Source of the DNA: an uncultured Pseudomonadota bacterium
GTDB taxonomy: Bacteria; Pseudomonadota; Alphaproteobacteria; RF32; CAG-239
Direction of reading: 5' to 3'
NCBI GenBank assembly: GCA_902785935.1
Contig: CADAAN010000006.1
Location: forward strand, 4,309-68,308
DNA length: 64,000 bases
Shown: piece after piece, positions 9,553-61,548 of the stretch
Layout of the letters: each line of letters starts with the position of its first letter
Position numbering within the stretch: position 1 is the stretch's first letter
Made by a program: the position numbers and the translations under genes
The notes under the pieces: model-generated
The model's database searches: none
What the model saw: only the letters and a program-made list of their open reading frames with translations
Told to the model about the DNA's origin: nothing

Positions 9553-9735
9553 AAGCCCCTCTGTCGTATAGTAATTGTTTTCCGGTGCCGCACTGGTGCC
9601 GCATATTTAAACAAATTTTATCCAATTTAATAAAACTTGTCAAGTAAAATTTTTAAAAATAATATAATAAAAACAAACACATAAATGCATTTTCATAAGA
9701 GATATGATTTTCTAAATAAAACATAATATCAATTA

Positions 9736-9780
9736 CTCTTAATCAGTGGGTCCGGGGTTCGAGCCCCCGTGCGCGTACCA
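9736..9780 (+). repeat. att site: 45-nt 3' fragment of tRNA-Lys(CUU), with no 5' half present
   Basis: CTCTTAATCAGTGGGTC-CGGGG-TTCGAGC-CCCCG-TGCGCGT-A-CCA covers the anticodon loop (CUU), variable loop, T arm, 3' acceptor strand and CCA. The upstream sequence is AT-rich and cannot form the D arm or 5' acceptor strand. Confidence 0.75.
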
Positions 9781-9786
9781 ATAGAA

Positions 9787-9810
9787 GGCCGCCTTTCAGG
9801 CGGTTTTTTT
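9787..9810 (+). terminator. Terminator directly after the tRNA fragment
   Basis: GGCCGCCT-ttc-AGGCGG hairpin followed by T7. Confidence 0.65.
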
Positions 9811-9928
9811 GATTCTGCCAAGCCAAAGGAGCGAAGCCCGAAAAGGGGTTTGACTACAAGCAAAATGCGAGCGTAAGCGCGCCGATCGGCCCCAGCCGAT
9901 GAGCGCAGTGAACATAGCGAAGCGAAGT

Positions 9929-9947
9929 AGCCCCCATGCGCGTACCA
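9929..9947 (+). repeat. Second, shorter copy of the att core (19 nt, 1 mismatch)
   Basis: AGCCCCCATGCGCGTACCA, compared with AGCCCCCGTGCGCGTACCA at 9762-9780. Both copies are followed by AAT. Confidence 0.6.
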
Positions 9948-9951
9948 ATTC

Positions 9952-9994
9952 TAAAAAAGCAACCCGCCGGCATAGCCTGCGGGTTGTTTTTTTT
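9952..9994. terminator. Bidirectional terminator (aas / att region)
   Basis: AACCCGC (9961-9967) pairs with GCGGGTT (9979-9985), flanked by an A-run and a T-run. Confidence 0.6.
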
Positions 9995-9997
9995 GAC

Positions 9998-12169
9998 TTA
10001 TGCAGCTTTGGAAAGCTCTGATAAAACATCCTTTTTCAAGGTGACGTTATCAACCTTTCCGGTTGCGGACATCGGGATTTTATCCCGATAAATTATCTGG
10101 CGCGGCAGATAAAGCTCAGGATAGCCGTTTTGCTTGATAAATTCACGCAACATTTCGGTATTAAGCGTTTTTTCGTTGGTTACAACAACAATTTGCTCAC
10201 CTTTCTGTTCATGCGGTACGGCTACGACACCACAGCAAAAATCATCTCTACCGGAAAAAGCGCTGTTAATCATATTTTCAACCGCTTTTAATGAAATCAT
10301 CTCACCGCCGACCTTGGCAAAACGTTTGATACGGTCTTTGATCGTGATAAATCCGATTTCATCAATCTCAACAACATCACCTGTGTGATACCAACCGTTG
10401 TGCGGCGGTACCAAAACCCCCGGATTGTCGGCAAAAATATAACCCTTCATCACATTCGGCCCCTTGACCACAAGCTCACCGCCGCGTTCAATACCGTCTA
10501 CTTTTTCAAGACGACATTCCATTCCCGGACAGAGTTTGCCGATGGTGCCGAATTTATTAAATACCATGTTGTTGCCTGCAACAGCCGGAGAACATTCCGT
10601 CGTGCCATAGGCTTCCATCAGACGTGTGCCCAATCGCTCATTTAATAAATTGCGTGTATCAAGCTTGACGCCTTCTGCTCCCGCATAAACAAGCCTTAAT
10701 GACCCGAAATCAAGCGGATGCGAAATTTTGGCATAGCTTCTGAAGAATGTATCCGTACCAATCATCACTGTTGCACTTAATTCATAAAGCAAATCCGAAA
10801 TGACGCGAAAATGGAGCGGAGAGGGGTACAAAAAGACTTTTGCACCTTGATAAAGAGCATAAAGTGTGCCTAATACAAGCCCGAAACTGTGGAAAATCGG
10901 CATTGAATTTAAGACAATATCACGCTTGTTTAAGGTTTCAAAAGTCGCAATTTGCCATACGTTTGAAATCACGTTTTGATTTGACAATACAACGGCTTTC
11001 GGTGCACCTTCCGAGCCTGAGGTAAACAAAATAACGGCTGCATCGTCAGGGGTTGCTTTATATGGCACATATTTGACTTTGTATTGCAATAAGGCCAAAA
11101 TTTTTGCAAAAATCGAAACAGACCGTCCGACTTCTTCTAAAAAAATCACCTCAAATCCGGCATTTGTAATCGCTTCAGCCAGCGGTTCTAATCCCGCTTT
11201 TTTGATAAACATTTTTGATGTAATCACTTTTTTTGCCTGAACGGTTTTAAGCCCGCTTATTACATTCTGTGCACCGGCAGAAAAGTTAATCATGACAGGC
11301 ACTTGTCCATAGGCATTTAAGCCGAAAAATGTGCATATAGCCGCAACGGAATTCGGAAGCATCACGGCAACCGGCTCTTTCTTGTCCGAAATGAGAGAAA
11401 AATGACGCCCCAAAACATACGATGCAAGCATAATATCCTTAAAAGTTTTGGGTTTGCGCGTAATATCTTCCAAAACGTATGGACGACGCAGGCCAAAGCA
11501 TCTCTTTGCATGAATTTTTGAGGCTTTAATCAATTGTGTAAAGACCGTCATTTTTTTATCATAAATCGATTCAAACATTTGCTCACGCATAATCATGTAA
11601 ATTTCATTTGAAATGTGATTACGTTGATGCCTGAGCTCTGCCTTAAGCTTTAAGGGACGGGGTGCGTCAACAACAATTTTGACATGCGGAAAATAACGAT
11701 GCGGTAATTTTCCGCCTGTTTTTGAAAAATGGCAATACTGCAAGCCGTTAATCCAAATCGGTATGACGGGCGAATCCGTTTTATCGGCAAGAAGCCCCGC
11801 TGATTCATAAATCTTCATAATATTACCGTTGGTTGTCATACGTCCTTCCGGAAAAATGACGCAAAGGCGGCCGGAATTAACCGTTGAAATCAAATGCTTT
11901 AAGTCCGGTACGTCAATATTGTCATGTTTGACAACATCAGCCGTTTTTAAAAACAAACGTACCCAATAGTTGCGATAGAGTTGCCCGTGCAATGCAAAAA
12001 CCGGATTGCCGGGTAAAAACGCAAAAAGCACAATCGGATCAACCCATGATACGTGGTTTGAAATATATACGCCCTTTTTGGGAAGTTTATCAACGTCAAA
12101 ACGCATTTCAAAACGAACCTTAAAGGTCTTAAAAAAACATCTTAAAAGAAAGCGAACAATATCGCGCAT
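9998..12169 (-). CDS. aas: Bifunctional 2-acylglycerophosphoethanolamine acyltransferase / acyl-ACP synthetase
   Basis: 723 aa. N-terminal PlsC-type H(X)4D motif (NHVSWVDP) plus an AMP-binding domain (FTSGSEGAPKAVVLS). Same length and architecture as Aas. Confidence 0.8.
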   Translation of the reverse strand: MRDIVRFLLRCFFKTFKVRFEMRFDVDKLPKKGVYISNHVSWVDPIVLFAFLPGNPVFALHGQLYRNYWVRLFLKTADVVKHDNIDVPDLKHLISTVNSGRLCVIFPEGRMTTNGNIMKIYESAGLLADKTDSPVIPIWINGLQYCHFSKTGGKLPHRYFPHVKIVVDAPRPLKLKAELRHQRNHISNEIYMIMREQMFESIYDKKMTVFTQLIKASKIHAKRCFGLRRPYVLEDITRKPKTFKDIMLASYVLGRHFSLISDKKEPVAVMLPNSVAAICTFFGLNAYGQVPVMINFSAGAQNVISGLKTVQAKKVITSKMFIKKAGLEPLAEAITNAGFEVIFLEEVGRSVSIFAKILALLQYKVKYVPYKATPDDAAVILFTSGSEGAPKAVVLSNQNVISNVWQIATFETLNKRDIVLNSMPIFHSFGLVLGTLYALYQGAKVFLYPSPLHFRVISDLLYELSATVMIGTDTFFRSYAKISHPLDFGSLRLVYAGAEGVKLDTRNLLNERLGTRLMEAYGTTECSPAVAGNNMVFNKFGTIGKLCPGMECRLEKVDGIERGGELVVKGPNVMKGYIFADNPGVLVPPHNGWYHTGDVVEIDEIGFITIKDRIKRFAKVGGEMISLKAVENMINSAFSGRDDFCCGVVAVPHEQKGEQIVVVTNEKTLNTEMLREFIKQNGYPELYLPRQIIYRDKIPMSATGKVDNVTLKKDVLSELSKAA

Positions 12170-16038: not shown

Positions 16039-16236
16039 TTGACTTTTATTTTAAAGTATGCCATAATCAAAAGCGTAACCAAAATGGTTATGGTGTTTAG
16101 ATAACACATTCGAGTTAAGGCTCCTTTGAAAGAGGAGTTGTTGATATAAGGCAATTTTTGCTCGAATAAGACAAACTGTAACTCGACAGTTATCTAGCTC
16201 CTCCATTTTGAGATTTTTCAAGATGGATTTTTTTTT
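16039..16236 (+). promoter_or_regulatory. Leader family A, copy A1: promoter + ~160-nt structured leader + terminator
   Basis: TTGACT (16039-16044), 17 nt, CATAAT (16062-16067). The conserved GTAACCAAAATGG starts at 16075. Covarying helices are described in the findings. The hairpin TCCATTTTGA/TCAAGATGGA plus T9 ends at 16236, 30 nt before the LRR gene. Confidence 0.7.
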
Positions 16237-16265
16237 CGATGGTTTAAAAAATAAGGAGAAAAAAT

Positions 16266-17324
16266 ATGAAGAAATATGTTTGGGTTTTTGGACTTATTTT
16301 AAGTTATAATGCACAAGCTTATGATTATAATGATTGTTTTGGTGCAAGCGGATGTCAGCCCTGTCCGAATAGTACGGACGGCAAATGTTTTTATGCTGTT
16401 GAAGGCAGCAAAATGACAATTTATGGCCCGACATCAACCGAACAAAATGCAGATGGCAGCTTAAAAGAAACAACATCGATTCCGCGTTATGCCTTTACCA
16501 ACAGCGATAATGCCAGCAATTTGCCGGAAAATATCACTTCTCTTGAAATAACAGGTAATATCACAACCGTTGAAGGTTATGCTTTTTGCTCTGCCCCTCT
16601 GACAAATGTACAATTTCCTGAGACACTTGAAACAATATCGGAATTGGCTTTTTGGAACAATAATTTATCACAAATCAATTTTCCTAATTCGCTTAAAAAT
16701 ATAGAAGAAGGTGCTTTTAATTGGAATCCATTTTCAGAAATTAATTTACCCGACGGATTAATGACGCTGGAGGGGTTAACAGGTGTTCCCCTGGGGCATG
16801 TTGTTATTCCGGATTCGATTGCAGAGGTTAAAGATGCGATTTTTTCTTCAAACTATCGTTTGCAATCATTGGTTGTCGGCGCAGACACAATGCTTGGCAA
16901 TATTTTTACCTACACAACAGGGGCTGTTAGTGTGCAATTTGATAAATTCAAGATGTTTTGCGCAGAAAATAACGGCTCATGCACAACAGCTTTGCAAAGT
17001 GCCGGTGCAACACAAGAACAAATTGCGCAAATACTGATAAGTTATACAAAAGATGACGCAACAGGCGTTTATCAAACAAGTGACGGAAAATATTATGCCG
17101 ATGTCAATTTGATGGCAAGACAAATGGCTTGCGAAAATAAGCAAAGCTGTGAAATTGCCAGTGCTGATATTCGGGCAGGTCGTCCTTTTGATATGAAAGG
17201 AAAATCTTACGCATCTGTCGATGATTTCATTCAAGGAAAATATATTCCAAAGCGTATCTATACCATCGATGAAGCCAATCATGTCGCGGGCAAGACAAAC
17301 ACTTTTACGATTCGGTATCGATAG
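16266..17324 (+). CDS. Secreted BspA-type leucine-rich-repeat protein with conserved C-terminal tag
   Basis: Signal peptide (...SYNAQA-YD), Cys-rich N-terminus, LRR_5-like repeats (ITSLEITGNITTVEGYAF...). C-terminus KRIYTIDEANHVAGKTNTFTIRYR. Confidence 0.85.
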   Translation: MKKYVWVFGLILSYNAQAYDYNDCFGASGCQPCPNSTDGKCFYAVEGSKMTIYGPTSTEQNADGSLKETTSIPRYAFTNSDNASNLPENITSLEITGNITTVEGYAFCSAPLTNVQFPETLETISELAFWNNNLSQINFPNSLKNIEEGAFNWNPFSEINLPDGLMTLEGLTGVPLGHVVIPDSIAEVKDAIFSSNYRLQSLVVGADTMLGNIFTYTTGAVSVQFDKFKMFCAENNGSCTTALQSAGATQEQIAQILISYTKDDATGVYQTSDGKYYADVNLMARQMACENKQSCEIASADIRAGRPFDMKGKSYASVDDFIQGKYIPKRIYTIDEANHVAGKTNTFTIRYR

Positions 17325-18404: not shown

Positions 18405-20579
18405 TTGAAAAACTTTGTGAGATTTTGTCTGCGTACGTTCTTTTATATCTTCAAGGTCAGATGCAACATCAAGTTTGACTTGAAGAAATTGCCTAAAAAA
18501 GGTGTTTATGTTTCAAACCACGTGTCTTATTTAGACCCGATTTTGCTCTTTGCCTTTTTGCCGGGCAATCCGATTTTTGCCTTAAACGGGCATTTGTATC
18601 GTCGAAGATTTATCCGTTTTTTGATGAAAACGGCTGATATTGTGGAATTTAATCCGATTGAACCGTCTGATTTGAAGGATTTAATCAATAAGGTGAACGA
18701 TAATCGTCTTGTGGTGATTTTTGCCGAAGGACGTATCACCGAAAGCGGCGGCTTGATGAAGATTTATGAGGCGCCGGGGCTTTTGGCGGACAAAACCAAT
18801 GCACCGATTATCCCGATTTGGATTGAAGGTCCGCAATATGGTTATTTTTCAAAGACAAAAGATAAATTGCCCCACAGACCGCTTCCTAAAATGCTGATTA
18901 CGGTCGGCAATCCGAAACCCTTAAAGCTTAAAGATGAGCTTCGTCGTCAGCGTGACCACTTAAGCAATGAAGTGTATCATATTTTGACGGATATGCAGTT
19001 TTCAATTACCTACAATCCGAATATTTCGATTTTTGCACAGCTTGTCAAAACATCTAAAGTATATTCAAAAACGGGCTTTTTCTTTAAACGTCCGATGGTG
19101 ATTGAAGATATTAACCGCAAACCGATGAGCTATAAGGATTTGTTGCTCCGTGTTTATTTACTCGGTAAGTTTTTTAAGAAAAAAGCCGCGCATATGGAGC
19201 ATGTCGGCTTGATGTTGCCGAATACAATCGCGGCTGCGGCAACGTTTTTGGGGTTATCCGCGTATGAGCGAATCCCTGTCATGCTGAACTTTTCAGTAGG
19301 TGCCAAAAACCTGATTTCAATGTGCAAAACAGCGGAAGTAAAGCTTGTGATTACGTCAATCGCCTTTATTAAAACGGCAAAAATGGAGCCGGTGATTGAA
19401 GTCTTAAAATCAAATGGTATCGAGGTCTTTTATCTTGAAAGTTTGGCTAAAAAATTAGGGATTATCAGCAAATTGGGTGCCATGCTTCGTTATAAAACAA
19501 AGCGTATCCCGCACCGTCACGGCGGCAACAGAAAAGCGGCTATTTTATTTACGTCAGGCTCTGAAGGTGCTCCGAAGGCCGTTGTTTTAAGCCATGCCAA
19601 CATTATCTCTAACATCAAACAAGTTACAACGGTCGAAACAATCAATATGAAGGATTTGGTCTTTAATGCCATGCCGATGTTCCACAGCTTCGGACTGACA
19701 ATCGGTACATTGTTCCCGCTTTTAGAGGGGGGCAGGGTGTTTTTGTATCCTTCGCCGTTGCATTATCGCGTGATTGCTGAATTGATTTATGAGCTGGGTG
19801 CGACAATTTTGTTCGGGACAGATACCTTTTTCAGAGGTTATGGACGAATCGCGCATCCGTACGATTTTTATAACGTTCGGTTTATGTATGCCGGTGCTGA
19901 GGCTGTTAAACTTGATACGCGTAATTTGTTTATGGAGCGGATGGGCGTGCGCATTATGGAAGCATACGGTGTGACGGAATGTGCGCCGTTTGTGGCAGCC
20001 AACAATCACGTTTACAGTCGATTCGGCTCAATCGGCAAAATTGTGCCGGGGATTGAGTATAAGTTAGAGCCTGTGCCCGGGATTGAAAAAGGCGGAGAGC
20101 TTGTCGTTAAAGGTCCGAATATTATGATGGGCTATATCATGCCTGATAAACCCGGGGTTTTGGTACCCTTAAAAGACGGCTGGTATCATACGGGTGATGT
20201 GGTTGAAATTGATGAAATCGGCTATGTCTTTATCAAAGACCGCATCAAACGCTTTGCTAAAATCGGCGGTGAGATGGTGTCCTTAAATGCCGTACAGGAT
20301 ATGGTTATCAAGGCTTATGAATGGATGGGGCCTGACTTTAGTTATGGTATTGTTTCCGTACCGCATGAAAGCAAGGGTGAGCAAATCGTCTTGGTCACGA
20401 ACAACAATCAGGTCAAACAGGAAGTTTTGCATGACTATATCAAAAACAATGGTATGTCTGAGCTGTTTTTGCCTCGAACCATCCTGTATCATGAAAAAAT
20501 TCCGGCCTTTTTGACAGGTAAAACCGATAACGTTACCTTGAAAAAAGAAGTGATGGAAGAATTGGGCTTAAATAAATAA
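18405..20579 (+). CDS. Second Aas-like acyltransferase / acyl-ACP synthetase paralog
   Basis: 724 aa with NHVSYLDP and FTSGSEGAPKAVVLS. Collinear with the 9998-12169 protein and roughly 60% identical by eye. TTG start with GGAG 7 nt upstream. Confidence 0.8.
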   Translation: MKNFVRFCLRTFFYIFKVRCNIKFDLKKLPKKGVYVSNHVSYLDPILLFAFLPGNPIFALNGHLYRRRFIRFLMKTADIVEFNPIEPSDLKDLINKVNDNRLVVIFAEGRITESGGLMKIYEAPGLLADKTNAPIIPIWIEGPQYGYFSKTKDKLPHRPLPKMLITVGNPKPLKLKDELRRQRDHLSNEVYHILTDMQFSITYNPNISIFAQLVKTSKVYSKTGFFFKRPMVIEDINRKPMSYKDLLLRVYLLGKFFKKKAAHMEHVGLMLPNTIAAAATFLGLSAYERIPVMLNFSVGAKNLISMCKTAEVKLVITSIAFIKTAKMEPVIEVLKSNGIEVFYLESLAKKLGIISKLGAMLRYKTKRIPHRHGGNRKAAILFTSGSEGAPKAVVLSHANIISNIKQVTTVETINMKDLVFNAMPMFHSFGLTIGTLFPLLEGGRVFLYPSPLHYRVIAELIYELGATILFGTDTFFRGYGRIAHPYDFYNVRFMYAGAEAVKLDTRNLFMERMGVRIMEAYGVTECAPFVAANNHVYSRFGSIGKIVPGIEYKLEPVPGIEKGGELVVKGPNIMMGYIMPDKPGVLVPLKDGWYHTGDVVEIDEIGYVFIKDRIKRFAKIGGEMVSLNAVQDMVIKAYEWMGPDFSYGIVSVPHESKGEQIVLVTNNNQVKQEVLHDYIKNNGMSELFLPRTILYHEKIPAFLTGKTDNVTLKKEVMEELGLNK

Positions 20580-20593
20580 GCCCAACCTGCTTT

Positions 20594-21493
20594 TTATCTG
20601 TACCTGATTTTGACCGAATTGACTTTGCCTGCGATGGCATTTGCTTCATCGATGGTGTAGATACGCTTTGGGATATAATCTCCTTTTTGCATCGCGGAAA
20701 TTGAGGCATAAGTTTTCTCACCGATACGATATTTCCCGTCAGGTGTCTTAGAATAATGAATAATTTTCGGGTTTTTACCCGTTTGAAGCGCTATTCTTGA
20801 ACATACCTCTTCGGAAGCCGCACAATATAGTTTTTGAAGGTTTGTGTTTGTAAAAGCTTCATCATCAATATTTGTCACACTATTCGGAATAACAAGTGTT
20901 TCAAGTGTTGAAATATCAGCAAGAGACGTCCAACCGATTGAGGTTACACCTTCAGGGATTTCCAGATTTTTAAGTTTTGTTCCGACAAAAGCTCTATCAG
21001 GAATTTCTGTTTGAGCCTGCCCAAGCATCAAATAATCTATTTTTGTTGCCGCAAAACTCCAAGCACCGACATATTGAAGATTTAGAGGTGTATTAATTTC
21101 TTTTAATAAATCTGCACCCTGAAATGCAGCACCGCCAATTTGTTCAATAGAATCCGGCAAATCAATACTGCTGATTTTTGTATAAGCAAGTGTATAACTA
21201 CCGATATTGGTTAAAGAATCCGGCAATGAGACACTTCGAATAGTTTCAAGTTTTTCAACCCATGGTGTTCCCGGCCTTTGGTTTTTAGAATCCCATTCGT
21301 AATTTGTCATTTTTCCGACAGGTGCATTTTCATCTTTGGCTTCAATTGAAAAAAGACCTGTCTGCTCATTTAGTCTGGCAAGGCAATTAGCGCCGCAATC
21401 CCAACAATTGATGTTTAAATCATCACCGCAAGTATTGACTGCTTTAGCTTGAGAGCTCATTGTCAGTAAAAAAAATAAAATCCATTTTCTCAT
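20594..21493 (-). CDS. Secreted BspA-type LRR protein with conserved C-terminal tag
   Basis: Signal peptide (..SSQAKA-VN), Cys-rich N-terminus, LRR_5 repeats. C-terminus KRIYTIDEANAIAGKVNSVKIRYR. Confidence 0.85.
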   Translation of the reverse strand: MRKWILFFLLTMSSQAKAVNTCGDDLNINCWDCGANCLARLNEQTGLFSIEAKDENAPVGKMTNYEWDSKNQRPGTPWVEKLETIRSVSLPDSLTNIGSYTLAYTKISSIDLPDSIEQIGGAAFQGADLLKEINTPLNLQYVGAWSFAATKIDYLMLGQAQTEIPDRAFVGTKLKNLEIPEGVTSIGWTSLADISTLETLVIPNSVTNIDDEAFTNTNLQKLYCAASEEVCSRIALQTGKNPKIIHYSKTPDGKYRIGEKTYASISAMQKGDYIPKRIYTIDEANAIAGKVNSVKIRYR

Positions 21494-21511: not shown

Positions 21512-21711
21512 AAAATAAAAAACCGTTTAAGATAAACCAAAAACGGAGGAGCTAAACGAACTGCACTAAATCAGTTAAGCTTATTCGAGGTATTAACCCT
21601 TATATCACTTACTCCTCTCTAAAGGAGTATATTTTTAGTGCAAGTGTCGTTTAAACACCGCAACCATTTTGGTTACGCTTTCATTTAAGCATATATCAAA
21701 ATACTTGTCAA
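21512..21711 (-). promoter_or_regulatory. Leader family A, copy A2: promoter + structured leader + terminator
   Basis: Minus strand: TTGACA (21711-21706), 17 nt, TTAAAT (21688-21683). GTAACCAAAATGGTTGCGGTG starts at 21676. The terminator CCGTTT/AAACGG plus T-run ends near 21512. Confidence 0.7.
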
Positions 21712-21846
21712 GATGTTTTTAGCCTCTGTCACAATCGGCAACAAAATGTGCATTGATAATTGGGGCTAACGCGGCAATATCAGTTGATATATCTGAAAAT
21801 CATTTTATAATCAGCGTATGTTTTTGAACTTTGGAGAACTTTAAAT

Positions 21847-29406: not shown

Positions 29407-30540
29407 CTAACGATATCGAATCGAGAAGGTGTTTGTTTTGCCCGCCACCTGATTCGCCTCATCGACGGTATAAATGCGCTTGCCCTCATAGCCGATAATC
29501 TTGCCATCTTCATAAATGGCCGTACTTCCATCGGCTAATTTTTTAGAGTATTTAACTGCCATAATGTCAGCAAAGTCATTCGGGTCAAGCCCTGCCGCCT
29601 CAATATTTCTTTGGCACTTAGCGACAGATCCGGCACACTGTATTTCTATGTTGCTTATATCAAGGTTATCGAAAGGAGAATAAATTCTGTCATAACTAAA
29701 AAATACTTCACAGCTATCCATTTCATATGTACAGCCGGCTTCTAAAGCTTTACTATAAAGTTGTGTATAATCTTCTTCGCTCATATGGCTACGGTTATTT
29801 TCTACATTTTCTAAGCTGTAAAAATCATCTTCTATCACATATCTGCTGAATGCAAAATTAAAATCATCTGATACTGTGATTCTTTCAAGATTTTTAATAC
29901 CCTTAAAAGCACCTTCATCAATATACTCAACCGAATCTGGCAATGTAAGGCTTATCAAACCTGACATACCCATAAAAGCATCTCTCTCTATATTTGTAAC
30001 CGAATCCGGAATAGTAAGATTAGTAACGTTTCTCATATACGCAAATGCAGTATCTTCAATATTTTTCAGTGAATTTGGTAAAGTTAAATTTGTAACAGCA
30101 GTAACATCATAAAATGCACCGCTACCGATATCTTCCACCGCATTACCGATTGTTAAATTTGTTACGTTAATCATATTACTAAAAGCACGATCACCAATAG
30201 AAACCACAGAATCTGAAATTTCAATGGATGTAGCATTTGTAGCTTCTCTAAAAGCATTATTTCCAATTGTCGTTATACCTTTTTCTACAACAACAGAGGT
30301 GATATCTTCGCGAATAGCATGCCATGGCATACTGTAATGATACCAACCAGAATAATTCTTATTTTCAAAATCATCCATAGCACCAGTGCCGGAAATAGTC
30401 AAAATACCGCTATCCGTATCCAAGCTCCAATAGCAATTCTCGCCGCATTTTTTGTAGCCGCTGTTTGTACCAATAATATCTGCTTTGACGCCTGAGGATA
30501 ACAAAATAAATCCCATCATCAGAATACATTTATTTTTCAT
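29407..30540 (-). CDS. Secreted BspA-type LRR protein with conserved C-terminal tag
   Basis: Signal peptide (..SSGVKA-DI) and about 7 LRR_5 repeats (TNLTIPDSVTNIERDAFMGM...). C-terminus KRIYTVDEANQVAGKTNTFSIRYR. Confidence 0.9.
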   Translation of the reverse strand: MKNKCILMMGFILLSSGVKADIIGTNSGYKKCGENCYWSLDTDSGILTISGTGAMDDFENKNYSGWYHYSMPWHAIREDITSVVVEKGITTIGNNAFREATNATSIEISDSVVSIGDRAFSNMINVTNLTIGNAVEDIGSGAFYDVTAVTNLTLPNSLKNIEDTAFAYMRNVTNLTIPDSVTNIERDAFMGMSGLISLTLPDSVEYIDEGAFKGIKNLERITVSDDFNFAFSRYVIEDDFYSLENVENNRSHMSEEDYTQLYSKALEAGCTYEMDSCEVFFSYDRIYSPFDNLDISNIEIQCAGSVAKCQRNIEAAGLDPNDFADIMAVKYSKKLADGSTAIYEDGKIIGYEGKRIYTVDEANQVAGKTNTFSIRYR

Positions 30541-30564
30541 AATTTTTTCCCTTTTAAAGATGTT

Positions 30565-30864
30565 AATATAAAAAAGTTTAACCGCGCCTTTTTAAGTGCG
30601 GCGGGGAGTGAAGAAATCATGTAAACCTAAATGACTCTTGCAACCTTTAGAATAACTCTTGTACATCCTTTGCAAGCTCCCCAACCAAAACTTTGGGGAT
30701 AATCGGCATTTTATACAAAAACACCTTCAAAACAAACAGTGTTATCCGTCACTGAGGTTTACAAAAGCTTCTTCAAAGCTCCGCACCCAATACATAGGCA
30801 CTAAATGATAAGATTTCTCCCATCACTTAAGATTTATTAGAACACGTTTTGATTTAATTGTCAA
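30565..30864 (-). promoter_or_regulatory. Leader family B, copy B1: promoter + ~255-nt structured leader + terminator
   Basis: Minus strand: TTGACA (30864-30859), 17 nt, TCTAAT (30841-30836). Conserved blocks and covarying helices are shared with 41695-41952 and 61258-61513. A hairpin plus T-run lies near 30571-30606. Confidence 0.7.
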
Positions 30865-40815: not shown

Positions 40816-41673
40816 TTAGCGATACCGAATCGAAAAAGTGTTTGTCTTGCCTGCAACTTGATTGGCCTCATCGATGGTGTAAATGCGCTTTGGTGCGTAA
40901 TGTTGATTGTAAATATCATTTGGGGAACTGTAAAACCTTCCGTTATAATAATAACCTGTTGAGTATTTTTGATAAAATTTAATTTTATCGCCAATTTCTT
41001 CATCGTCTAAAAGAGCCTGACAACTGGCATTTGTGTCTTCGCAATAAATAGCCAAAGATTCTGACAATGCTTTATTTATGGAATTAGTAAGCATTTTTTT
41101 TGTAATCATGGTCGAACCGGATATGGTTAAAGATTTCAATTCCGTGCCGCCTAATGTCCAATCTTCATCTTCAAGAATAACATCTTTGGGTAATACAATA
41201 TCTTCAACTTTTGTACGATTAAAATTAGCCCCTCCGATAAAAGTCAGACTATTTGGTAAATTAATTTTTTCAAGTGATTGAGTATCATTAAAAGCACCAC
41301 CCGAAATCTTTTGAAGTCCTTCGGGTAAAACAGCCTCTCGCAAATCAAACAAATATTCAAAAGCAGAAGAACCAATTGATTTAAATATTTTATCACTTGA
41401 TTCGTTTTCGATAACGACTTTATAAATTTGTGAAGAATAGGCTCCCCAATCGGCTGTATTATGGCACCATGGGTCACAGCTGTGACTATAATTTTTCATA
41501 TCACCATAACCTTTAATGGTTAATGTATTCGTGTTTTTATCAAGTGTTGCTGTACAACTATCATTTGAGGTTGCCGCACAGTCAAATGTACAAATATCAC
41601 TGTTATCACAAAGTGTATCAGCATATGTATTAAAAGCCGTAAATATACAAAAAATATAAATTACTTTTCTCAT
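40816..41673 (-). CDS. Secreted BspA-type LRR protein with conserved C-terminal tag
   Basis: I placed the true start at ATG 41673 (MRKVIYIFCIFTAFNTYA-DT, with GGAGAA 7 nt upstream). The 67-codon N-terminal extension in the track ORF runs through the conserved leader RNA. C-terminus KRIYTIDEANQVAGKTNTFSIRYR. Confidence 0.85.
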   Translation of the reverse strand: MRKVIYIFCIFTAFNTYADTLCDNSDICTFDCAATSNDSCTATLDKNTNTLTIKGYGDMKNYSHSCDPWCHNTADWGAYSSQIYKVVIENESSDKIFKSIGSSAFEYLFDLREAVLPEGLQKISGGAFNDTQSLEKINLPNSLTFIGGANFNRTKVEDIVLPKDVILEDEDWTLGGTELKSLTISGSTMITKKMLTNSINKALSESLAIYCEDTNASCQALLDDEEIGDKIKFYQKYSTGYYYNGRFYSSPNDIYNQHYAPKRIYTIDEANQVAGKTNTFSIRYR

Positions 41674-41694
41674 ATCTTTTCTCCAAAATTTATT

Positions 41695-41987
41695 AAACGA
41701 AAAAACCACTCTAAAATGAGCGGCGGGGAGTAAAAGAATCATGTAATGGAAAATGACTTCCGTAACCTTTAGGTCAAAACCTTGAACATACGCCACGGAC
41801 TCCCCAACCAAAATATCGGGGATAAGCATTGTTTTAAAATAAAAAAACAACACTAAAACAGCGTTATCTCTCACTGTCCATTACAAAAGCTCTTTTAAAG
41901 CCCCGCACCCTTTTCGGGTACTTGATAGAAAAAGCCAAAACCTTCCTATCTGATTTATATTATTACATATCAAAAACATCTTGTCAA
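41695..41987 (-). promoter_or_regulatory. Leader family B, copy B2: promoter + structured leader + terminator
   Basis: Minus strand: TTGACA (41987-41982), 17 nt, AATAAT (41964-41959). Conserved blocks as in B1 and B3. The terminator CCGCTC/GAGTGG plus T5 lies near 41697-41726. Confidence 0.7.
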
Positions 41988-42025
41988 GAAATTTTAAAAT
42001 ATTTTAATACGTGATTTGGCTGTGA

Positions 42026-42213
42026 ACGTAAATAAAAGCTTAGAATGAGCTAGATGCGACGGAAGCTCTTTTACGAAGTGTACAAAAGAGGTTGTATACG
42101 TAAATAAAAGCTTAGAATGAGTCAAGTACGACGTACGGCCGCTTGCGCAGTGTACAAAAAGGGTACATAAGCAAGCGGCCGCACAAGTAATTGGCCATTA
42201 TAAGCTTTTATTT
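42026..42213. repeat. Nested repeat element: 72-bp tandem duplication plus an inverted terminal copy overlapping the nusG stop
   Basis: ACGTAAATAAAAGCTTAGAATGAG occurs at 42026-42049 and 42098-42121. GTGTACAAAA lies 52 nt after each. The inverted copy TAAGCTTTTATTT is at 42201-42213. There is an internal GC-rich hairpin GGCCGCTTGC/GCAAGCGGCC (42137-42180). Confidence 0.6.
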
Positions 42214-45086: not shown

Positions 45087-45986
45087 TTATCGATACCTTA
45101 TTTTGAAAGAATTAACCTTGCCCGCGACGGCATTCGCCTCGTCGATGGTATAAATGCGGATATCGGCACGAGCAGGAACAGATGGCAAGACAGATGGAGA
45201 AACAGTTCCTGATGCTGAAGCAATTTTTGCTCTGCAAGAAGTCTCCGTTTCGCAACCCTCTTCCGTTCCTCCCAACATCATTTTTGCTGCTGAAGAGTAA
45301 TAATTATCACCAACTTTATATACCCCATCTTCTTTAGTATATTGTTCAATTTTTGACGTCCCATGGCCTTTACAAATATTAACATCTTCGCAAAAAAGTT
45401 TTGTGTTGCTGGCAAACGGAAAGTTAACAATTGTTGTTCCTCTGCTAATAATGACATTGTTCAAGGATTCATTTTGAAAGCTACTTCCAAAAGCATCCTG
45501 ATTAATTTTCGTTACACCGCTTAAATCAATATCATGCAGGTTGGTTGTATATGTAAAAGCGCCACTTCCAATTTCTTTAACTCCTGTAAAATCCACACTC
45601 GACAAAGCAGATCGCGAAAAAGCGGTTCCGCCGATTGATGTAACACCGCTTGCAAAAGCAAGTGAGGTTACACCTTGAGGAAGCATTGATGTCCCATAAG
45701 TGTCATCTGCAAAAGCTGATCTCGGTACTTTGTATGTGAGATTGCCGTTTGAATCTGTTGAAGTAATTGATGACCCCTGAATGGTCATTTTTCCGTTATC
45801 AATAGTGTAGTATGTGAGCATATGAGAGGCATAGCTACTGGCTTGCGACAAACATCCTTCGCCATAAGTTGAAACACAAGCCTGACAAAATGTGTTCCCT
45901 TCAGGGCACTCAATTAAAGCAATGGAAATTTTTGAAAATGAAACTGTTGCTACTAATGCCGAGGTTAAAAAAATATTTCTAGTCAT
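45087..45986 (-). CDS. Secreted BspA-type LRR protein with conserved C-terminal tag
   Basis: N-terminal signal-like segment, Cys-rich region, LRR_5 repeats (VTSLAFASGVTSIGGTAFSRS...). C-terminus IRIYTIDEANAVAGKVNSFKIRYR. Confidence 0.85.
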   Translation of the reverse strand: MTRNIFLTSALVATVSFSKISIALIECPEGNTFCQACVSTYGEGCLSQASSYASHMLTYYTIDNGKMTIQGSSITSTDSNGNLTYKVPRSAFADDTYGTSMLPQGVTSLAFASGVTSIGGTAFSRSALSSVDFTGVKEIGSGAFTYTTNLHDIDLSGVTKINQDAFGSSFQNESLNNVIISRGTTIVNFPFASNTKLFCEDVNICKGHGTSKIEQYTKEDGVYKVGDNYYSSAAKMMLGGTEEGCETETSCRAKIASASGTVSPSVLPSVPARADIRIYTIDEANAVAGKVNSFKIRYR

Positions 45987-46020
45987 AACTTTTCTCCTAT
46001 TTTTCTTATTTACACTGTTG

Positions 46021-46212
46021 AAAAAATCACTTCAGAAGATATCCGAAGTGGGAGCTAGAAAACTGTATACATTCAGTCAGACTTATTCGACATTTCAAAA
46101 CGCTTATATCATCTACTCCCGGTAAAAGGAGCGATATGTATAAGGTGTTTTCTAGACACCGCAACCATTTTGGTTACTTTTTTATTTTCACATAAAAAAC
46201 GTAGCTTGTCAA
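46021..46212 (-). promoter_or_regulatory. Leader family A, copy A3: promoter + structured leader + terminator
   Basis: Minus strand: TTGACA (46212-46207), 17 nt, GAAAAT (46189-46184). GTAACCAAAATGGTTGCGGTG starts at 46177. The terminator CACTTCGGA/TTCTGAAGTG plus T6 ends at 46021. Confidence 0.7.
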
Positions 46213-46353
46213 ATAAATTTTGTAAAAAATATCTTTTTTTGCTTGAAAAATAAAACTTTAATGATAAATTGTGCTTGAAATTTAAATTAACCCCCGTGCG
46301 GGGAATCCGCACAGCTCTTTTCTTAAGAGTTTACTTTTTTATAAGGATACTAA

Positions 46354-52252: not shown

Positions 52253-52843
52253 TTAGTAGTCCCCTCTGATTACATGATAAAACCGACAGCTATCTAAACT
52301 TGTTTCACATGCCTGACAGCCCTCAATGATATCAGACATTTTGACCTCCGTAATACCTCCTGTAGGCCAATATATATCCTTACCGCCCACCTCTATCAAT
52401 CCGCCTGTCCACCATTCAACCGGGACGGCATTTTCCCATCCTGCAGAGGCAAAAGCAATACACGATTTTGAATCGGTGAAATGGATAACAAATTCACCCT
52501 GAACATATGAACCACCGCTATCATAAAAATCCATATTCAGCGTTCCTATCGGAAGTTTGCAAGCCTCGTCTCCATTAAGATCCGTTGTTACTTGACAATC
52601 CGGTAAAAGCCCGTATTGAATTAAATCTTCGGCATCACGAATCTCAATACCTTCTCCCCAGCCTTTTTGCTCCAACTCCATAAAGCGTTGAAGAATTTGA
52701 TTATATGTGTCAATTGTTTGATTCATTTTGTATTTAAACATTGCGGCAGAATAACCTTTGAGTGCGCCCGCCGACAACACACCGACAATAGCCAACACGC
52801 CCAGCATTTCAACCATACTTCTACCTATTTCATTAATTTTCAT
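52253..52843 (-). CDS. Type IV pilin / pseudopilin-like protein
   Basis: The N-terminus MKINEIG-RSMVEMLGVLAIVGVLSAG has a prepilin-type signal with Glu at +5, followed by a hydrophobic helix. Confidence 0.75.
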   Translation of the reverse strand: MKINEIGRSMVEMLGVLAIVGVLSAGALKGYSAAMFKYKMNQTIDTYNQILQRFMELEQKGWGEGIEIRDAEDLIQYGLLPDCQVTTDLNGDEACKLPIGTLNMDFYDSGGSYVQGEFVIHFTDSKSCIAFASAGWENAVPVEWWTGGLIEVGGKDIYWPTGGITEVKMSDIIEGCQACETSLDSCRFYHVIRGDY

Positions 52844-52863
52844 TGGTTATACCTTTCTTTCAT

Positions 52864-53061
52864 AAAAAAAATTCCGTTTTATATAACCAAAAACGGAGGA
52901 GCTAACTAACTGCCATTGTACAGCTTGCTTTATTCGCGCATCACTAAAATACCTTATATCAGCAACTCCTCATCAAGGAGCTATACAATGGATGTGTTAG
53001 TTAAACACCGCAACCATTTTGGTTACATCCTGATTATTTCATACAAAAGCATAAAAGTCAA
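52864..53061 (-). promoter_or_regulatory. Leader family A, copy A4: promoter + structured leader + terminator (pilin-like gene)
   Basis: Minus strand: TTGACT (53061-53056), 17 nt, AATAAT (53038-53033). GTAACCAAAATGGTTGCGGTG starts at 53026. The terminator CCGTTTT/AAAACGG plus T8 ends at 52864. Confidence 0.7.
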
Positions 53062-53253
53062 ATACTTTTTTGTACATACAAAAAAAATAAATTTTTTTTG
53101 TAACAAAGTACTTGCAAAATTAAAAAAAATGTATATCATATAAAAAAGTGATGCAGATGTTTTTGATTTTGTCTGCACTTTGTTTCTCATTTTAACGAAG
53201 ATTTTTTTAGTATTAACAAAAGCTGCAAGGCTTTGCTTTTAGGTGTTTAAGGT

Positions 53254-59994: not shown

Positions 59995-60609
59995 TTAGTA
60001 GAATTTCCAAGAAACCGTTGCTTGTTCGGTGCATGTAGCTACAGCACCTGTACCCGAAGCTCCGCCCATCGGATAAGGTTTACCCTCATCAGCACCTAGT
60101 ACTTTACCTTTGGCATAATTTGTACCGGTAGAAGCTTCAATTTCTACACCGATAAAACCCGAACCGGCACCCGAACCAAAATCAGCCGTTGCAAGTGCAA
60201 TGCAAGCCTCCTTAGGTAATCCTTTGTAACTGATTACAAAGGCTGTTGGTTTTGCATCACCAGTAATTGCTGTATTGACAGCAGAAATTGTATTTGAAGT
60301 AGCCATAGCTTCTAAAATTTGAACACTTCCTTTAAATGGGTTTGTTAAAGCGGCAGGAGATGTACCCATTACAGGCGGAACAATTCCTAAACTGACAGCT
60401 TGTGTCGCCAAGCCGGCGTAGTTACCCTGCTGTCCATACATTGTTCGGATGTTTGTCACAAGCATTGTGATTTGTTCCATTGTCGTGTTGAGTTTGTGTT
60501 TGAACATCGCTTTTGAATAGCCTGCCAAACCGCCGGCTGACAAAACACCGATAATCGCCAAAACACCAAGCATTTCAACCATTGAACGACCATTTTGATT
60601 ATTCTTCAT
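59995..60609 (-). CDS. Type IV pilin / pseudopilin-like protein (distal gene of pair)
   Basis: MKNNQNG-RSMVEMLGVLAIIGVLSAGG. The first ~65 aa are nearly identical to the upstream paralog. C-terminus ..VSWKFY. Confidence 0.8.
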   Translation of the reverse strand: MKNNQNGRSMVEMLGVLAIIGVLSAGGLAGYSKAMFKHKLNTTMEQITMLVTNIRTMYGQQGNYAGLATQAVSLGIVPPVMGTSPAALTNPFKGSVQILEAMATSNTISAVNTAITGDAKPTAFVISYKGLPKEACIALATADFGSGAGSGFIGVEIEASTGTNYAKGKVLGADEGKPYPMGGASGTGAVATCTEQATVSWKFY

Positions 60610-60648: not shown

Positions 60649-61230
60649 TTAATAGAACTTCCAAATGATTGTGTTTTTTGCACCTGCACAATCACTAACT
60701 GCATCAGCCATTTCATACGCTTTTCCCTCAGCACGTTTGTTTGCAATGCCTGTACCAATGACTATAGAAGATCCATCTGCTGAGGCTGCTGCAGTACCTG
60801 TTTTATCGGCTATAACACCTACAAAACCTGAACCTGCGCCTGAACCAAAGTCAGACGTTGCCAAAGCAATACAAGCTTCTGTTGGTAAACCATCAAAAGC
60901 GACTGTAAATGATTCATTGTTTGTACCTGTAGCAACAATATTAACATTACCCTTAAATGGGTTTGTAAGTGTGGCTCCACTACCCATAACAGCCGGAACA
61001 ACACCAAGACTTGATGCTTCTGTATTTGTTAATCCCGCATAATTTCCCTGTGTGCCGTACATTGTACGGATATTCGTCACAAGCATTGTGATTTGATCCA
61101 TGGTGGTATTGAGTTTGTGCTTGAACATGGCCTTTGAATAACCTGCCAAACCGCCGGCTGACAAAACACCGATGATGGCAAGTACGCCAAGCATTTCGAC
61201 CATACTACGGCCGTTTTCGTTATTTTTCAT
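60649..61230 (-). CDS. Type IV pilin / pseudopilin-like protein (proximal gene of pair)
   Basis: MKNNENG-RSMVEMLGVLAIIGVLSAGG, Glu at +5. C-terminus ..IIWKFY. Confidence 0.8.
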   Translation of the reverse strand: MKNNENGRSMVEMLGVLAIIGVLSAGGLAGYSKAMFKHKLNTTMDQITMLVTNIRTMYGTQGNYAGLTNTEASSLGVVPAVMGSGATLTNPFKGNVNIVATGTNNESFTVAFDGLPTEACIALATSDFGSGAGSGFVGVIADKTGTAAASADGSSIVIGTGIANKRAEGKAYEMADAVSDCAGAKNTIIWKFY

Positions 61231-61257: not shown

Positions 61258-61548
61258 GTAAAACCGCCCCTAAAAGAGCGGTCGGAGAGTTAAACAATCA
61301 TGGATTAGAAAATGACTCCGACAACCTTTAGATTAAAAATCCTGAACATTCGCTACCGGCTCCCCGACACTTTTCGGGGATAATGTGCTATATTTAAAAT
61401 AAAAAATAACACCACATCAATACAGTGTTATCCTCACTGTCTAATCCAAGAGTTGTTTAAAACTCCGCGCCCGTCTCAGGCACTTGATAGAAAAAGTCAC
61501 CTCTTTCTATCCGACCATTATTTAACAACACAAATGCTTAATTGTCAA
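61258..61548 (-). promoter_or_regulatory. Leader family B, copy B3: promoter + structured leader + terminator (pilin-like operon)
   Basis: Minus strand: TTGACA (61548-61543), 17 nt, TTAAAT (61525-61520). Conserved blocks and covarying helices as in B1 and B2. The hairpin CCGC/GCGG plus T-rich tract lies near 61258-61285. Confidence 0.7.

Follow-up and report, generated by a model that had tools for sequence, protein, structure and literature searches.

The first description of zipper-type transcription attenuators dates from 2026 and is confined to conjugative plasmids of Gram-positive bacteria (PMC13401043). The attenuator in question, cATTpLS20, occurs on the Bacillus subtilis plasmid pLS20 and on related Gram-positive conjugative plasmids (Gonzalez-Alvarez et al., Nucleic Acids Res 2026, PMC13401043). 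In it, a weak upstream stem-loop of -6.4 kcal/mol is followed by a long central stem-loop with imperfect pairing and then by an intrinsic terminator, and its behaviour has been shown both in vitro and in vivo (PMC13401043). Complementarity between the upstream stem-loop and the terminator allows the central stem to zip further into an antiterminator, and the resulting conformers are of similar energy (PMC13401043). The upstream stem-loop is also the most conserved part of the element, and the authors suspect that an RNA-binding protein or an antisense RNA acts there (PMC13401043). Here we describe a leader RNA of comparable layout in an uncultured alphaproteobacterium (lineage RF32; CAG-239), located in a 64,000-nt window of contig CADAAN010000006.1. 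The window is the whole stretch of DNA that was analysed, and coordinates are positions within it unless a sequence outside it is named. The leader, copy A1 of leader family A (16039-16236, + strand), precedes a gene encoding a secreted leucine-rich repeat (LRR) protein with a C-terminal tag. Leader family A is a real, previously uncatalogued and covariation-supported cis-regulatory family, and A1 probably controls its LRR-tag gene by zipper-type attenuation.

The A1 leader and its fold

A1 appears to be a self-contained expression cassette, a reading we favour on balance, in which a sigma-70-type extended -10 promoter would drive a leader of ~160 nt that attenuates the LRR-tag gene. A consensus scan placed the -35 hexamer TTGACT at 16039-16044 (+), with a T-rich stretch just 5' of it, and the extended -10 element TG-c-CATAAT at 16059-16067 (+), separated from the -35 by a 17-nt spacer. 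The A1 promoter thereby scores 10 of 12 consensus matches in addition to the TG. This arrangement recurs across the family: among 30 distinct copies, TTGAC[AT] is found in 27, the 17-nt spacer in 29 and the TG of the extended -10 in 27, the consensus of the -10 element being nAnAAT. The predicted transcription start is G1 (16075, +), the first base of the hairpin P0, as judged from spacing. Because G1 lies 6-7 nt past the -10 with a pyrimidine at -1 in 29 of the 30 copies, P0 most likely begins at the first transcribed base.

P0, a 5'-terminal hairpin also termed the 5' box (16075-16091, +), folds as GUAACC-AAAAU-GGUUAU (GTAACCAAAATGGTTAT). It contains the box segment CAAAAUGG (16080-16087, +), the 5' strand of the putative antiterminator, which can pair with the 5' arm of the terminator. 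There follow, on the same strand, the P1 5' strand GGUGUUUAGAUAAC (16092-16105; partner 16189-16201), the P2 5' strand UCGAGUUA (16110-16117; partner 16179-16186) and the P3 hairpin GCUCCUUU-GAA-AGAGGAGU (16120-16138) with its invariant CUCC:GGAG core. P4, an internal loop and P5 occupy 16139-16174 (+), reading UGUU, GAUAUAAG (16143-16150), the P5 hairpin (16151-16162), CGAAUAA (16163-16169) and GACAA. After the invariant junction triplet CUG (16176-16178, +) come the P2 3' strand, an invariant CA and the P1 3' strand GUUAUCUAGCUCC (16189-16201, +). The intrinsic terminator (16202-16236, +) starts immediately after the last base of P1 at 16201. Its T9 run, already reported in an earlier note on this DNA, was recovered by the consensus scan at 16228-16236, behind an 11-bp stem with a 4-nt loop (16202-16227), and the segment CCAUUUUG of its 5' arm (16203-16210) is complementary to the box. 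A Shine-Dalgarno sequence, AAGGAG (16253-16258, +), then leads into the open reading frame 16266-17324 (+). As the note had stated, this is an LRR-tag gene: it encodes a signal peptide, BspA-type LRR_5 repeats (E = 6e-21) and the shared C-terminal tag, ending in ...KRIYTIDEANHVAGKTNTFTIRYR. The ATG follows the T-run after only 29 nt, and a separate promoter would not fit there.

The fold was derived by comparing copies. RNAalifold, run on 4 and then on 18 copies, proposed P0, the long-range P1 (GGUGUUUAGAUAAC with GUUAUCUAGCUCC) and the inner helices. We then parsed 30 copies by anchors into a structure-guided alignment and counted pairs, repeating the count on a model-derived alignment of 38 copies. 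In the latter, standard pairs filled 95.8% of pair cells, a percentage inflated by fitting the alignment to the structure, compared with 75.4% after shuffling and 37-44% when the partner was slid by 1-3 columns. Compensatory double changes were seen at 27 of its 49 pairs, and the covariation score was 0.54 against 0.16 for shuffled columns. Independently of any fitting, each copy has its own, perfectly complementary P1 and P2 of 7-9 bp. Compensatory changes affect seven of the 13 pairs in P1 and eight of the nine in P2, and P4 and P5 likewise covary freely. P3 combines its invariant core with a freely varying loop. P0 is nearly invariant, with 99.6% of cells paired; its compensatory events, C5:G13 to U:A and A7:U11 to G:C, occur in copies other than A1. 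The numerous G-U pairs would be A-C on the opposite strand, indicating that the leader RNA is read from the sense strand of the downstream gene. Local hairpins (GUGUU/AACAC and CUG/CAG) were replaced by the long-range P1 and P2 after the covariation counts.

In the resulting architecture, P0 is followed by a long rod of covarying helices (P1-P2) with a three-way junction (P3 and P4-P5) at its tip, and a terminator abuts P1. Its unpaired core is highly constrained. In 37 distinct copies the P4/P5 internal loop, G-A-N-A-U-A-A-G opposite C-G-A-A-U-A-A, is invariant or nearly so, purine-rich and pseudo-symmetric, and the junction nucleotides CUG and CAG are invariant. The loop was also considered as a kink-turn and rejected by eye, lacking the 3-nt bulge beside tandem G-A pairs. 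The P1-P5 domain has a predicted folding energy of about -35 to -45 kcal/mol. The full-length A1 leader has a minimum free energy of -50.7 kcal/mol (z = -4.9), in a fold where P0, P1-P5 and the terminator coexist; thus the aptamer-like domain and the terminator are not mutually exclusive. The 110-nt three-way-junction domain with its invariant loops is likely to be the sensor of the system.

Proposed competition between the box and the terminator arm

Nucleotides 5-13 of P0 (CCAAAAUGG) are complementary to the terminator 5' arm. The helix formed by box and arm would extend P1 across a 4x1 internal loop and exclude both P0 and the terminator. The earlier note had proposed that the 5' box and the terminator 3' arm compete for the 5' arm, with exact complementarity in A1. 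This complementarity holds, CCATTTTG at 16203-16210 matching CAAAATGG at 16080-16087; the box position given, 16078-16086, was two bases off, and the trailing AG of the proposed CCATTTTGAG is unpaired. The competition itself is supported, though not proven, by all the computational tests run, namely duplex energies, pairing and the near-isoenergetic states. As an account of the leader it was incomplete, omitting the likely locking of the box by P0, the position of the A1 variant outside the competing segment and the three-way-junction domain.

The duplex energies separate leader arms from other terminators. In RNAduplex calculations on the 18 distinct terminator arms of the leaders, the median energy of pairing with the box was -9.0 kcal/mol, and 83% of the arms lay at or below -8 kcal/mol. 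A control set of 126 unrelated terminators, taken from the same contigs, averaged -4.8 kcal/mol; 5.6% of them reached this threshold, as did 1.8% of shuffled arms. Eight or all nine of nine positions pair in 29 of 32 distinct box/arm combinations, compared with 6.6% for shuffled tails. This pairing is found across six classes of arm sequence: CCAUUUUGA, CCGUUUUGG, CCGUUUU(U/A)GG, UUCCGUUUUGA, CCCCGUUUUGG and CCACUUUGG. Several natural changes in the box respect the pairing. The variants A7G and A9G stay compatible through wobble with U, and U11C converts a U-G pair with the arm to C-G while keeping the P0 pair 7:11. In copy L054_4570 a one-base deletion in the loop replaces an A-C mismatch with a bulge, opposite an arm of the class of terminators termed type-b.

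To represent the nascent transcript, RNAs were ended at the terminator loop and the energies of the antiterminator and P0 states compared. The antiterminator lay at a median of +0.6 kcal/mol relative to the P0 state and within +2 kcal/mol or lower in 27 of 38 copies, and it was favoured outright in 12 copies, A1 included. When arms were grafted onto the A1 core, the difference was at most 1 kcal/mol for 75% of real arms and 21% of control arms. Once the RNA is full-length, the terminator state is the more stable by 6-13 kcal/mol.

On this evidence we propose the following sequence of events. The RNA would start at G16075 and the weak P0 would fold first, followed by the P1-P2 rod with its three-way junction and invariant purine-rich loops. 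The terminator 5' arm would then emerge straight after P1, with two possible partners. Pairing with its own 3' arm would form the terminator and stop transcription at T9, leaving an RNA of ~160 nt. Pairing with the box CAAAAUGG would extend P1 over the small internal loop, melt P0 and permit read-through into the gene. P0, by holding the box in a 5' hairpin, would serve as the anti-antiterminator. Anything that stabilises or opens P0, or that stiffens P1 and the junction domain, could set the outcome. We infer both the transcription start and the switching itself, and we likewise infer the existence and nature of an effector that would act on the invariant core or on P0.

The variant carried by A1 fits into this scheme in a specific way. 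The earlier note had singled out TTAT in place of TTGC in the 5' box, and a pattern scan confirmed that A1 is the only copy in the window to have it; outside the window it is also present in copy L010 of the metagenome-assembled genome (MAG) RGIG5118. TTAT lies in the 3' base of P0, outside the competing octamer. It exchanges the pairs G1-C17 and U2-G16 for G1-U17 and U2-A16, giving P0 a predicted energy of -4.8 kcal/mol compared with -6.1 kcal/mol for the standard hairpin. Among the window copies, A1 alone has the antiterminator as the predicted ground state of its nascent transcript (-2.3 kcal/mol), in keeping with the view that it displays the clearest competition of the four copies. Copy L007, which combines the arm of A1 with a standard P0, comes out at +0.2 kcal/mol. 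Because UUAU weakens P0 and the arm matches the box over a perfect 8 nt, A1 is predicted to show more read-through than the other three window copies. If the model is true, changing CAAAAUGG to CAUUUAGG with P0 kept would raise termination.

Several observations weigh against this mechanism. Compensatory covariation between box and arm is almost absent, the box being nearly invariant, and two box changes are uncompensated (U11 to G in L049_2799 and G13 to A in L053_11174). The type-b terminators (CACUUUGG and variants, including that of window copy A3) match the box poorly, with the antiterminator at +3.4 to +7.9 kcal/mol. The grafting test is only moderately discriminating, since control terminators grafted in silico were near-isoenergetic in 16-21% of cases. 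The copies are related by descent and recombination, and the statistics given above overstate their independence. Finally, the invariant core implies an input to the leader.

Family members and the genes they precede

The 21-nt box pattern GTAACCAAAATGGTTRYGGTG occurs four times in the window, compared with 0.01 occurrences expected. The pattern scan located these at 16075(+), 21676(-), 46177(-) and 53026(-), bearing out the statement that A1 is the sole plus-strand copy. Copy A2 (21515-21731, -; model match 21548-21676) lies upstream of the LRR-tag gene 20594-21493, and copy A3 (46015-46232, -; model match 46051-46177) upstream of the LRR-tag gene 45087-45986. Copy A4 (52860-53081, -; model match 52898-53026) precedes the pilin-like gene 52253-52843. 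An exact copy of the 13-nt box core, AACCAAAATGGTT, is also present at 7957-7969 inside an AbiEi antitoxin gene (minus strand), with no other leader features nearby, and is probably there by chance. An anti-box small RNA was sought in the window and rejected: this was the only additional exact 13-mer, and matches with up to two mismatches were at chance level.

A covariance model, R1, gave 41 matches scoring 70-109 bits, spread over no fewer than eight rumen alphaproteobacterial assemblies, and matched A1 itself at 16075-16201 with 98.3 bits. Exact-pattern scans of one genome per species and of a metagenome collection recovered 27 further copies, in the MAG Alphaproteobacteria RGIG5118 (roe deer rumen; 12 copies), the rumen MAG RUG11221 and the metagenomes Ga0256404 and Ga0256405. 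Pattern matches in Acinetobacter, Methanosarcinales and others were dismissed as chance, the rest of the element being absent. Homologues of the A1 protein all came from Alphaproteobacteria MAGs (best identity 94%), and searching their contigs with R1 added copies, some with altered boxes that the exact patterns had missed. A profile search with the C-terminal tag, aimed at more genomes, returned short fragments only, and the full-length protein was the better query. No Rfam 15 family matched, either in the whole window at the gathering threshold or in A1 and five other copies in E-value mode (up to 10 or 1), where the hits were at chance level and not reproducible. There was no blastn match among 72,556 plasmids, and no similar sequence was found in phage records.

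In the 25 copies with a readable downstream region, the first gene encodes a signal-peptide protein, mostly with LRR_5 repeats and the C-terminal tag KRIYT[IV][DE]EA...[IL]RY[RK]. Two copies, A4 and L016, precede type IV pilin-like proteins, whose homologues carry the Pfam domains Bundlin and PilS, and the divergent copy L053_11174 precedes a gene for an NAD-dependent sugar epimerase/dehydratase. The gene usually starts 25-45 nt past the T-run, and its transcription must therefore pass the terminator. The most likely role of the family is to determine if transcription proceeds into these genes for secreted adhesin-like proteins and pilins.

The tag, of ~25 residues (KRIYT[IV][DE]EA..(A/S)(G/K)K.N.F.[IL]RY[RK]), ends almost all regulated proteins. 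In the window it is encoded at 17250-17321(+), 20597-20668(-), 29410-29481(-), 40819-40890(-) and 45090-45161(-). It is covered by no Pfam or NCBIfam model and could serve this lineage as a sorting or secretion signal of a kind yet to be characterised. The window also encodes three type IV pilin-like paralogues, at 52253-52843(-), 59995-60609(-) and 60649-61230(-), that share a G/RSMVEMLGVLAIVGVLS motif at the N terminus, one behind leader A and two behind a second leader, family B. In L053 a prepilin peptidase gene adjoins the leader-A copy.

Family B leaders, of ~250 nt, precede other LRR-tag genes and a pilin-like gene. They lie in the window at ~30541-30860, ~41680-41990 and ~61260-61540 (-), and elsewhere in L044 (~9700-9990), L047 (~9700-9990) and L057 (~4300-4560). 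No Rfam family matched family B, and the family-A model gave weak full-length matches of 18-28 bits. Like family A, it has a P0-like hairpin (GUACCC-GAAAA-GGGUGC), P1 and P2 in the same order, a CUCC tail abutting the terminator and the same classes of gene downstream. It differs in being ~90 nt longer, with an extra 5' hairpin before the P0-like one, a larger junction insert and a variable P0 loop. Family B is probably a distant relative of family A with a larger junction insert.

Other features of these loci were recorded alongside. Upstream of A1, and divergent from it as the earlier note described, lie genes for MlaE, an ABC ATPase, MlaD and an auxiliary lipoprotein. Two paralogous acyltransferase/AMP-binding (Aas-like) genes in inverted orientation (9998-12169, -, and 18405-20579, +), 72-76% identical over segments, enclose both this Mla operon and the A1 gene. 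The 129-nt leader core at 273-401 of L040 is identical to that of the window at 21548-21676(-), with promoter flank, terminator and downstream gene all different; comparison of the two sequences indicates recombination or cassette exchange among copies. In some RGIG5118 copies the interval from the leader-A terminator to the start codon holds an additional inverted repeat rich in G+C, CCCTCCCCCCTC…GAGGGGGAGG (L010 ~545-620, L015 ~3980-4070 and L021 ~340-440). A tandem intergenic repeat of ~72 nt (…CTCTTTTGTACACT.CG.AAAAG…TCTAAGCTTTTATTTA…) is found upstream of leader copies in different assemblies, at 42018-42161 in the window, 9482-9790 in L042 and 9476-9760 in L046.

Alternative explanations and known systems

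Two alternatives concern the input to the leader. An RNA-binding protein on the invariant P0 or on the internal loop might stabilise either the terminator or the antiterminator state, and we take such protein-dependent attenuation as a serious possibility, if well short of an even one. Tandem purine-purine internal loops are common protein sites, and the sequence of P0 is conserved well beyond what a hairpin needs; the pLS20 authors propose the same for their conserved upstream stem-loop (PMC13401043). However, no candidate regulator gene is consistently adjacent on the contigs examined, and the defining features of ANTAR, PyrR and T-box RNA targets are absent. It is doubtful, though worth keeping in view, that P1-P5 forms the aptamer of a small-molecule riboswitch, where binding would set the stability of P1 and the junction and thereby the zipper. 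Such a switch would elaborate on zipper attenuation rather than exclude it. The occurrence of invariant nucleotides at loops and at junctions, in a fold that elsewhere covaries freely, argues for it, as do the pseudo-symmetry of the internal loop (5'-GA(N)AUAAG / 5'-CGAAUAA) and the many copies per genome before one functional class (adhesin-like proteins, pilins and one sugar epimerase). Many copies before one gene class is how cyclic di-GMP (c-di-GMP) riboswitches are deployed. Yet searches with E-values as high as 10 gave no Rfam aptamer, folding predictions make the ligand-free domain very stable (~-40 kcal/mol), and the regulated genes are structural rather than metabolic and suggest no ligand. 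Still more tentatively, and in our view unlikely, the invariant core (GA(N)AUAAG / CGAAUAA, CUG, CAG and CUCC:GGAG) could be the aptamer of a new riboswitch class on a zipper-type platform. Its ligand would be a small signalling molecule, perhaps one with symmetry such as a cyclic dinucleotide, and it would switch the whole repertoire of tagged adhesin-like proteins and type IV pilins, with family B as a second class of the same superfamily.

The remaining alternatives would replace the zipper. The leader could be a stand-alone gene for a ~160-nt trans-acting or structural RNA that is always terminated, its link to the downstream gene being incidental. Its own strong promoter and terminator, and the preference for the terminator state at full length, would suit such a gene. 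But every complete copy precedes a gene of the same regulon in the same orientation, and the short interval from T-run to gene leaves no room for a promoter; we consider this reading improbable, although the terminated RNA could have a second role of its own. A different antiterminator is also conceivable, in which the 3' arm of P3 (GAGGAGU), in place of the 5' box, pairs with the tail GCUCCUC abutting the terminator. The complementarity exists in all copies, A61/U138 changes to G/C jointly in type-b copies and in L025, and family B has the analogous GGGGAG / CUCCCC. This pairing would, however, exclude the strongly covarying P1 and P2, it costs a median of 9.1 kcal/mol over the minimum-energy fold, and it falls outside the terminator stem in type-b copies, making it quite improbable. 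Leader-peptide attenuation, with translation from the AUG at +10 (16084; MVMVFR* in A1) and ribosome position selecting the fold, is hardly credible. An ATG does lie inside the box of most copies, but there is no Shine-Dalgarno sequence, the reading frame varies freely in length and sequence, and the ATG is lost in L042_6614 (ACG, where a compensating change keeps the P0 pair) and L049_2799 (AGG).

Zipper-type attenuation of the LRR-tag gene is the reading we prefer. If true, zipper logic would also operate in Gram-negative chromosomes, in the form of a multi-copy family with an invariant sensor-like core. It would exert master post-initiation control over a large group of paralogues, the secreted LRR proteins and the pilins, which are likely to be the host- or partner-contact surface of this uncultured rumen lineage. 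The leader is a compact (~200 bp) and well-defined target for ligand or protein fishing. Its natural variants predict graded leakiness, from A1 with its weak P0 and perfect match to the type-b copies with their poor match, and the model is thus directly testable.

Among described leader elements, the targets of ANTAR proteins and PyrR and the BglG-type ribonucleic antiterminator (RAT) sites resemble leader A in placing a short conserved hairpin in competition with a terminator. ANTAR targets are defined by tandem hairpins with hexaloops (A at position 1 and G at position 4), of which the second overlaps the terminator. An ANTAR target was rejected: the P0 loop is a 3- to 5-nt A-rich one, with no hexaloop hairpin pair and no second such hairpin before the terminator. 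The PyrR site (RF00515) was likewise set aside, scoring 21.7 bits against a gathering threshold of 54, mostly on the terminator, with downstream genes unrelated to pyrimidine metabolism. Rfam searches of the leader copies returned no T-box match. An RfaH/ops-like element was discarded without a formal test, only GCGGT being shared with the ops consensus.

The c-di-GMP-I and c-di-GMP-II riboswitches act through a terminator and antiterminator and lie upstream of pilin and adhesin genes, for example in Clostridioides difficile. Leader A has the general structural make-up of a riboswitch, that is, a covarying domain, invariant unpaired nucleotides and an adjacent expression platform. With the c-di-GMP riboswitches it shares a covarying 5' domain with invariant junction nucleotides, an intrinsic terminator, many copies and a link to surface and adhesion genes. 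It differs from them in that no Rfam model matches, in that its aptamer-like fold is compatible with the terminator, and in that a separate 5' hairpin does the competing.

The closest parallel is the zipper of pLS20. As there, leader A comprises a weak stem-loop (-6.1 kcal/mol, or -4.8 in A1), a long central element and a terminator before the first gene. The upstream stem-loop is again complementary to the terminator 5' arm, the conformers are close in energy (type-b copies excepted), and the upstream stem-loop is the most conserved part. In contrast to pLS20, leader A is chromosomal, present in many copies per genome of a Gram-negative host from a different phylum and without similarity to plasmids, and it stands before secreted LRR and pilin genes rather than conAn1 and conjugation genes. 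Its central element is a three-way junction with invariant loops, whereas that of pLS20 is a plain imperfect stem. The segment that pairs with the terminator comprises the 5' stem, the loop and the start of the 3' stem of P0, compared with the 3' stem alone in pLS20, and P0 lies at the extreme 5' end of the RNA, unlike its pLS20 counterpart. Judged by sequence, leader A is not a homologue of the cATTpLS20 family proper; in its predicted structure, it has all the features of the zipper class that can be assessed in silico.

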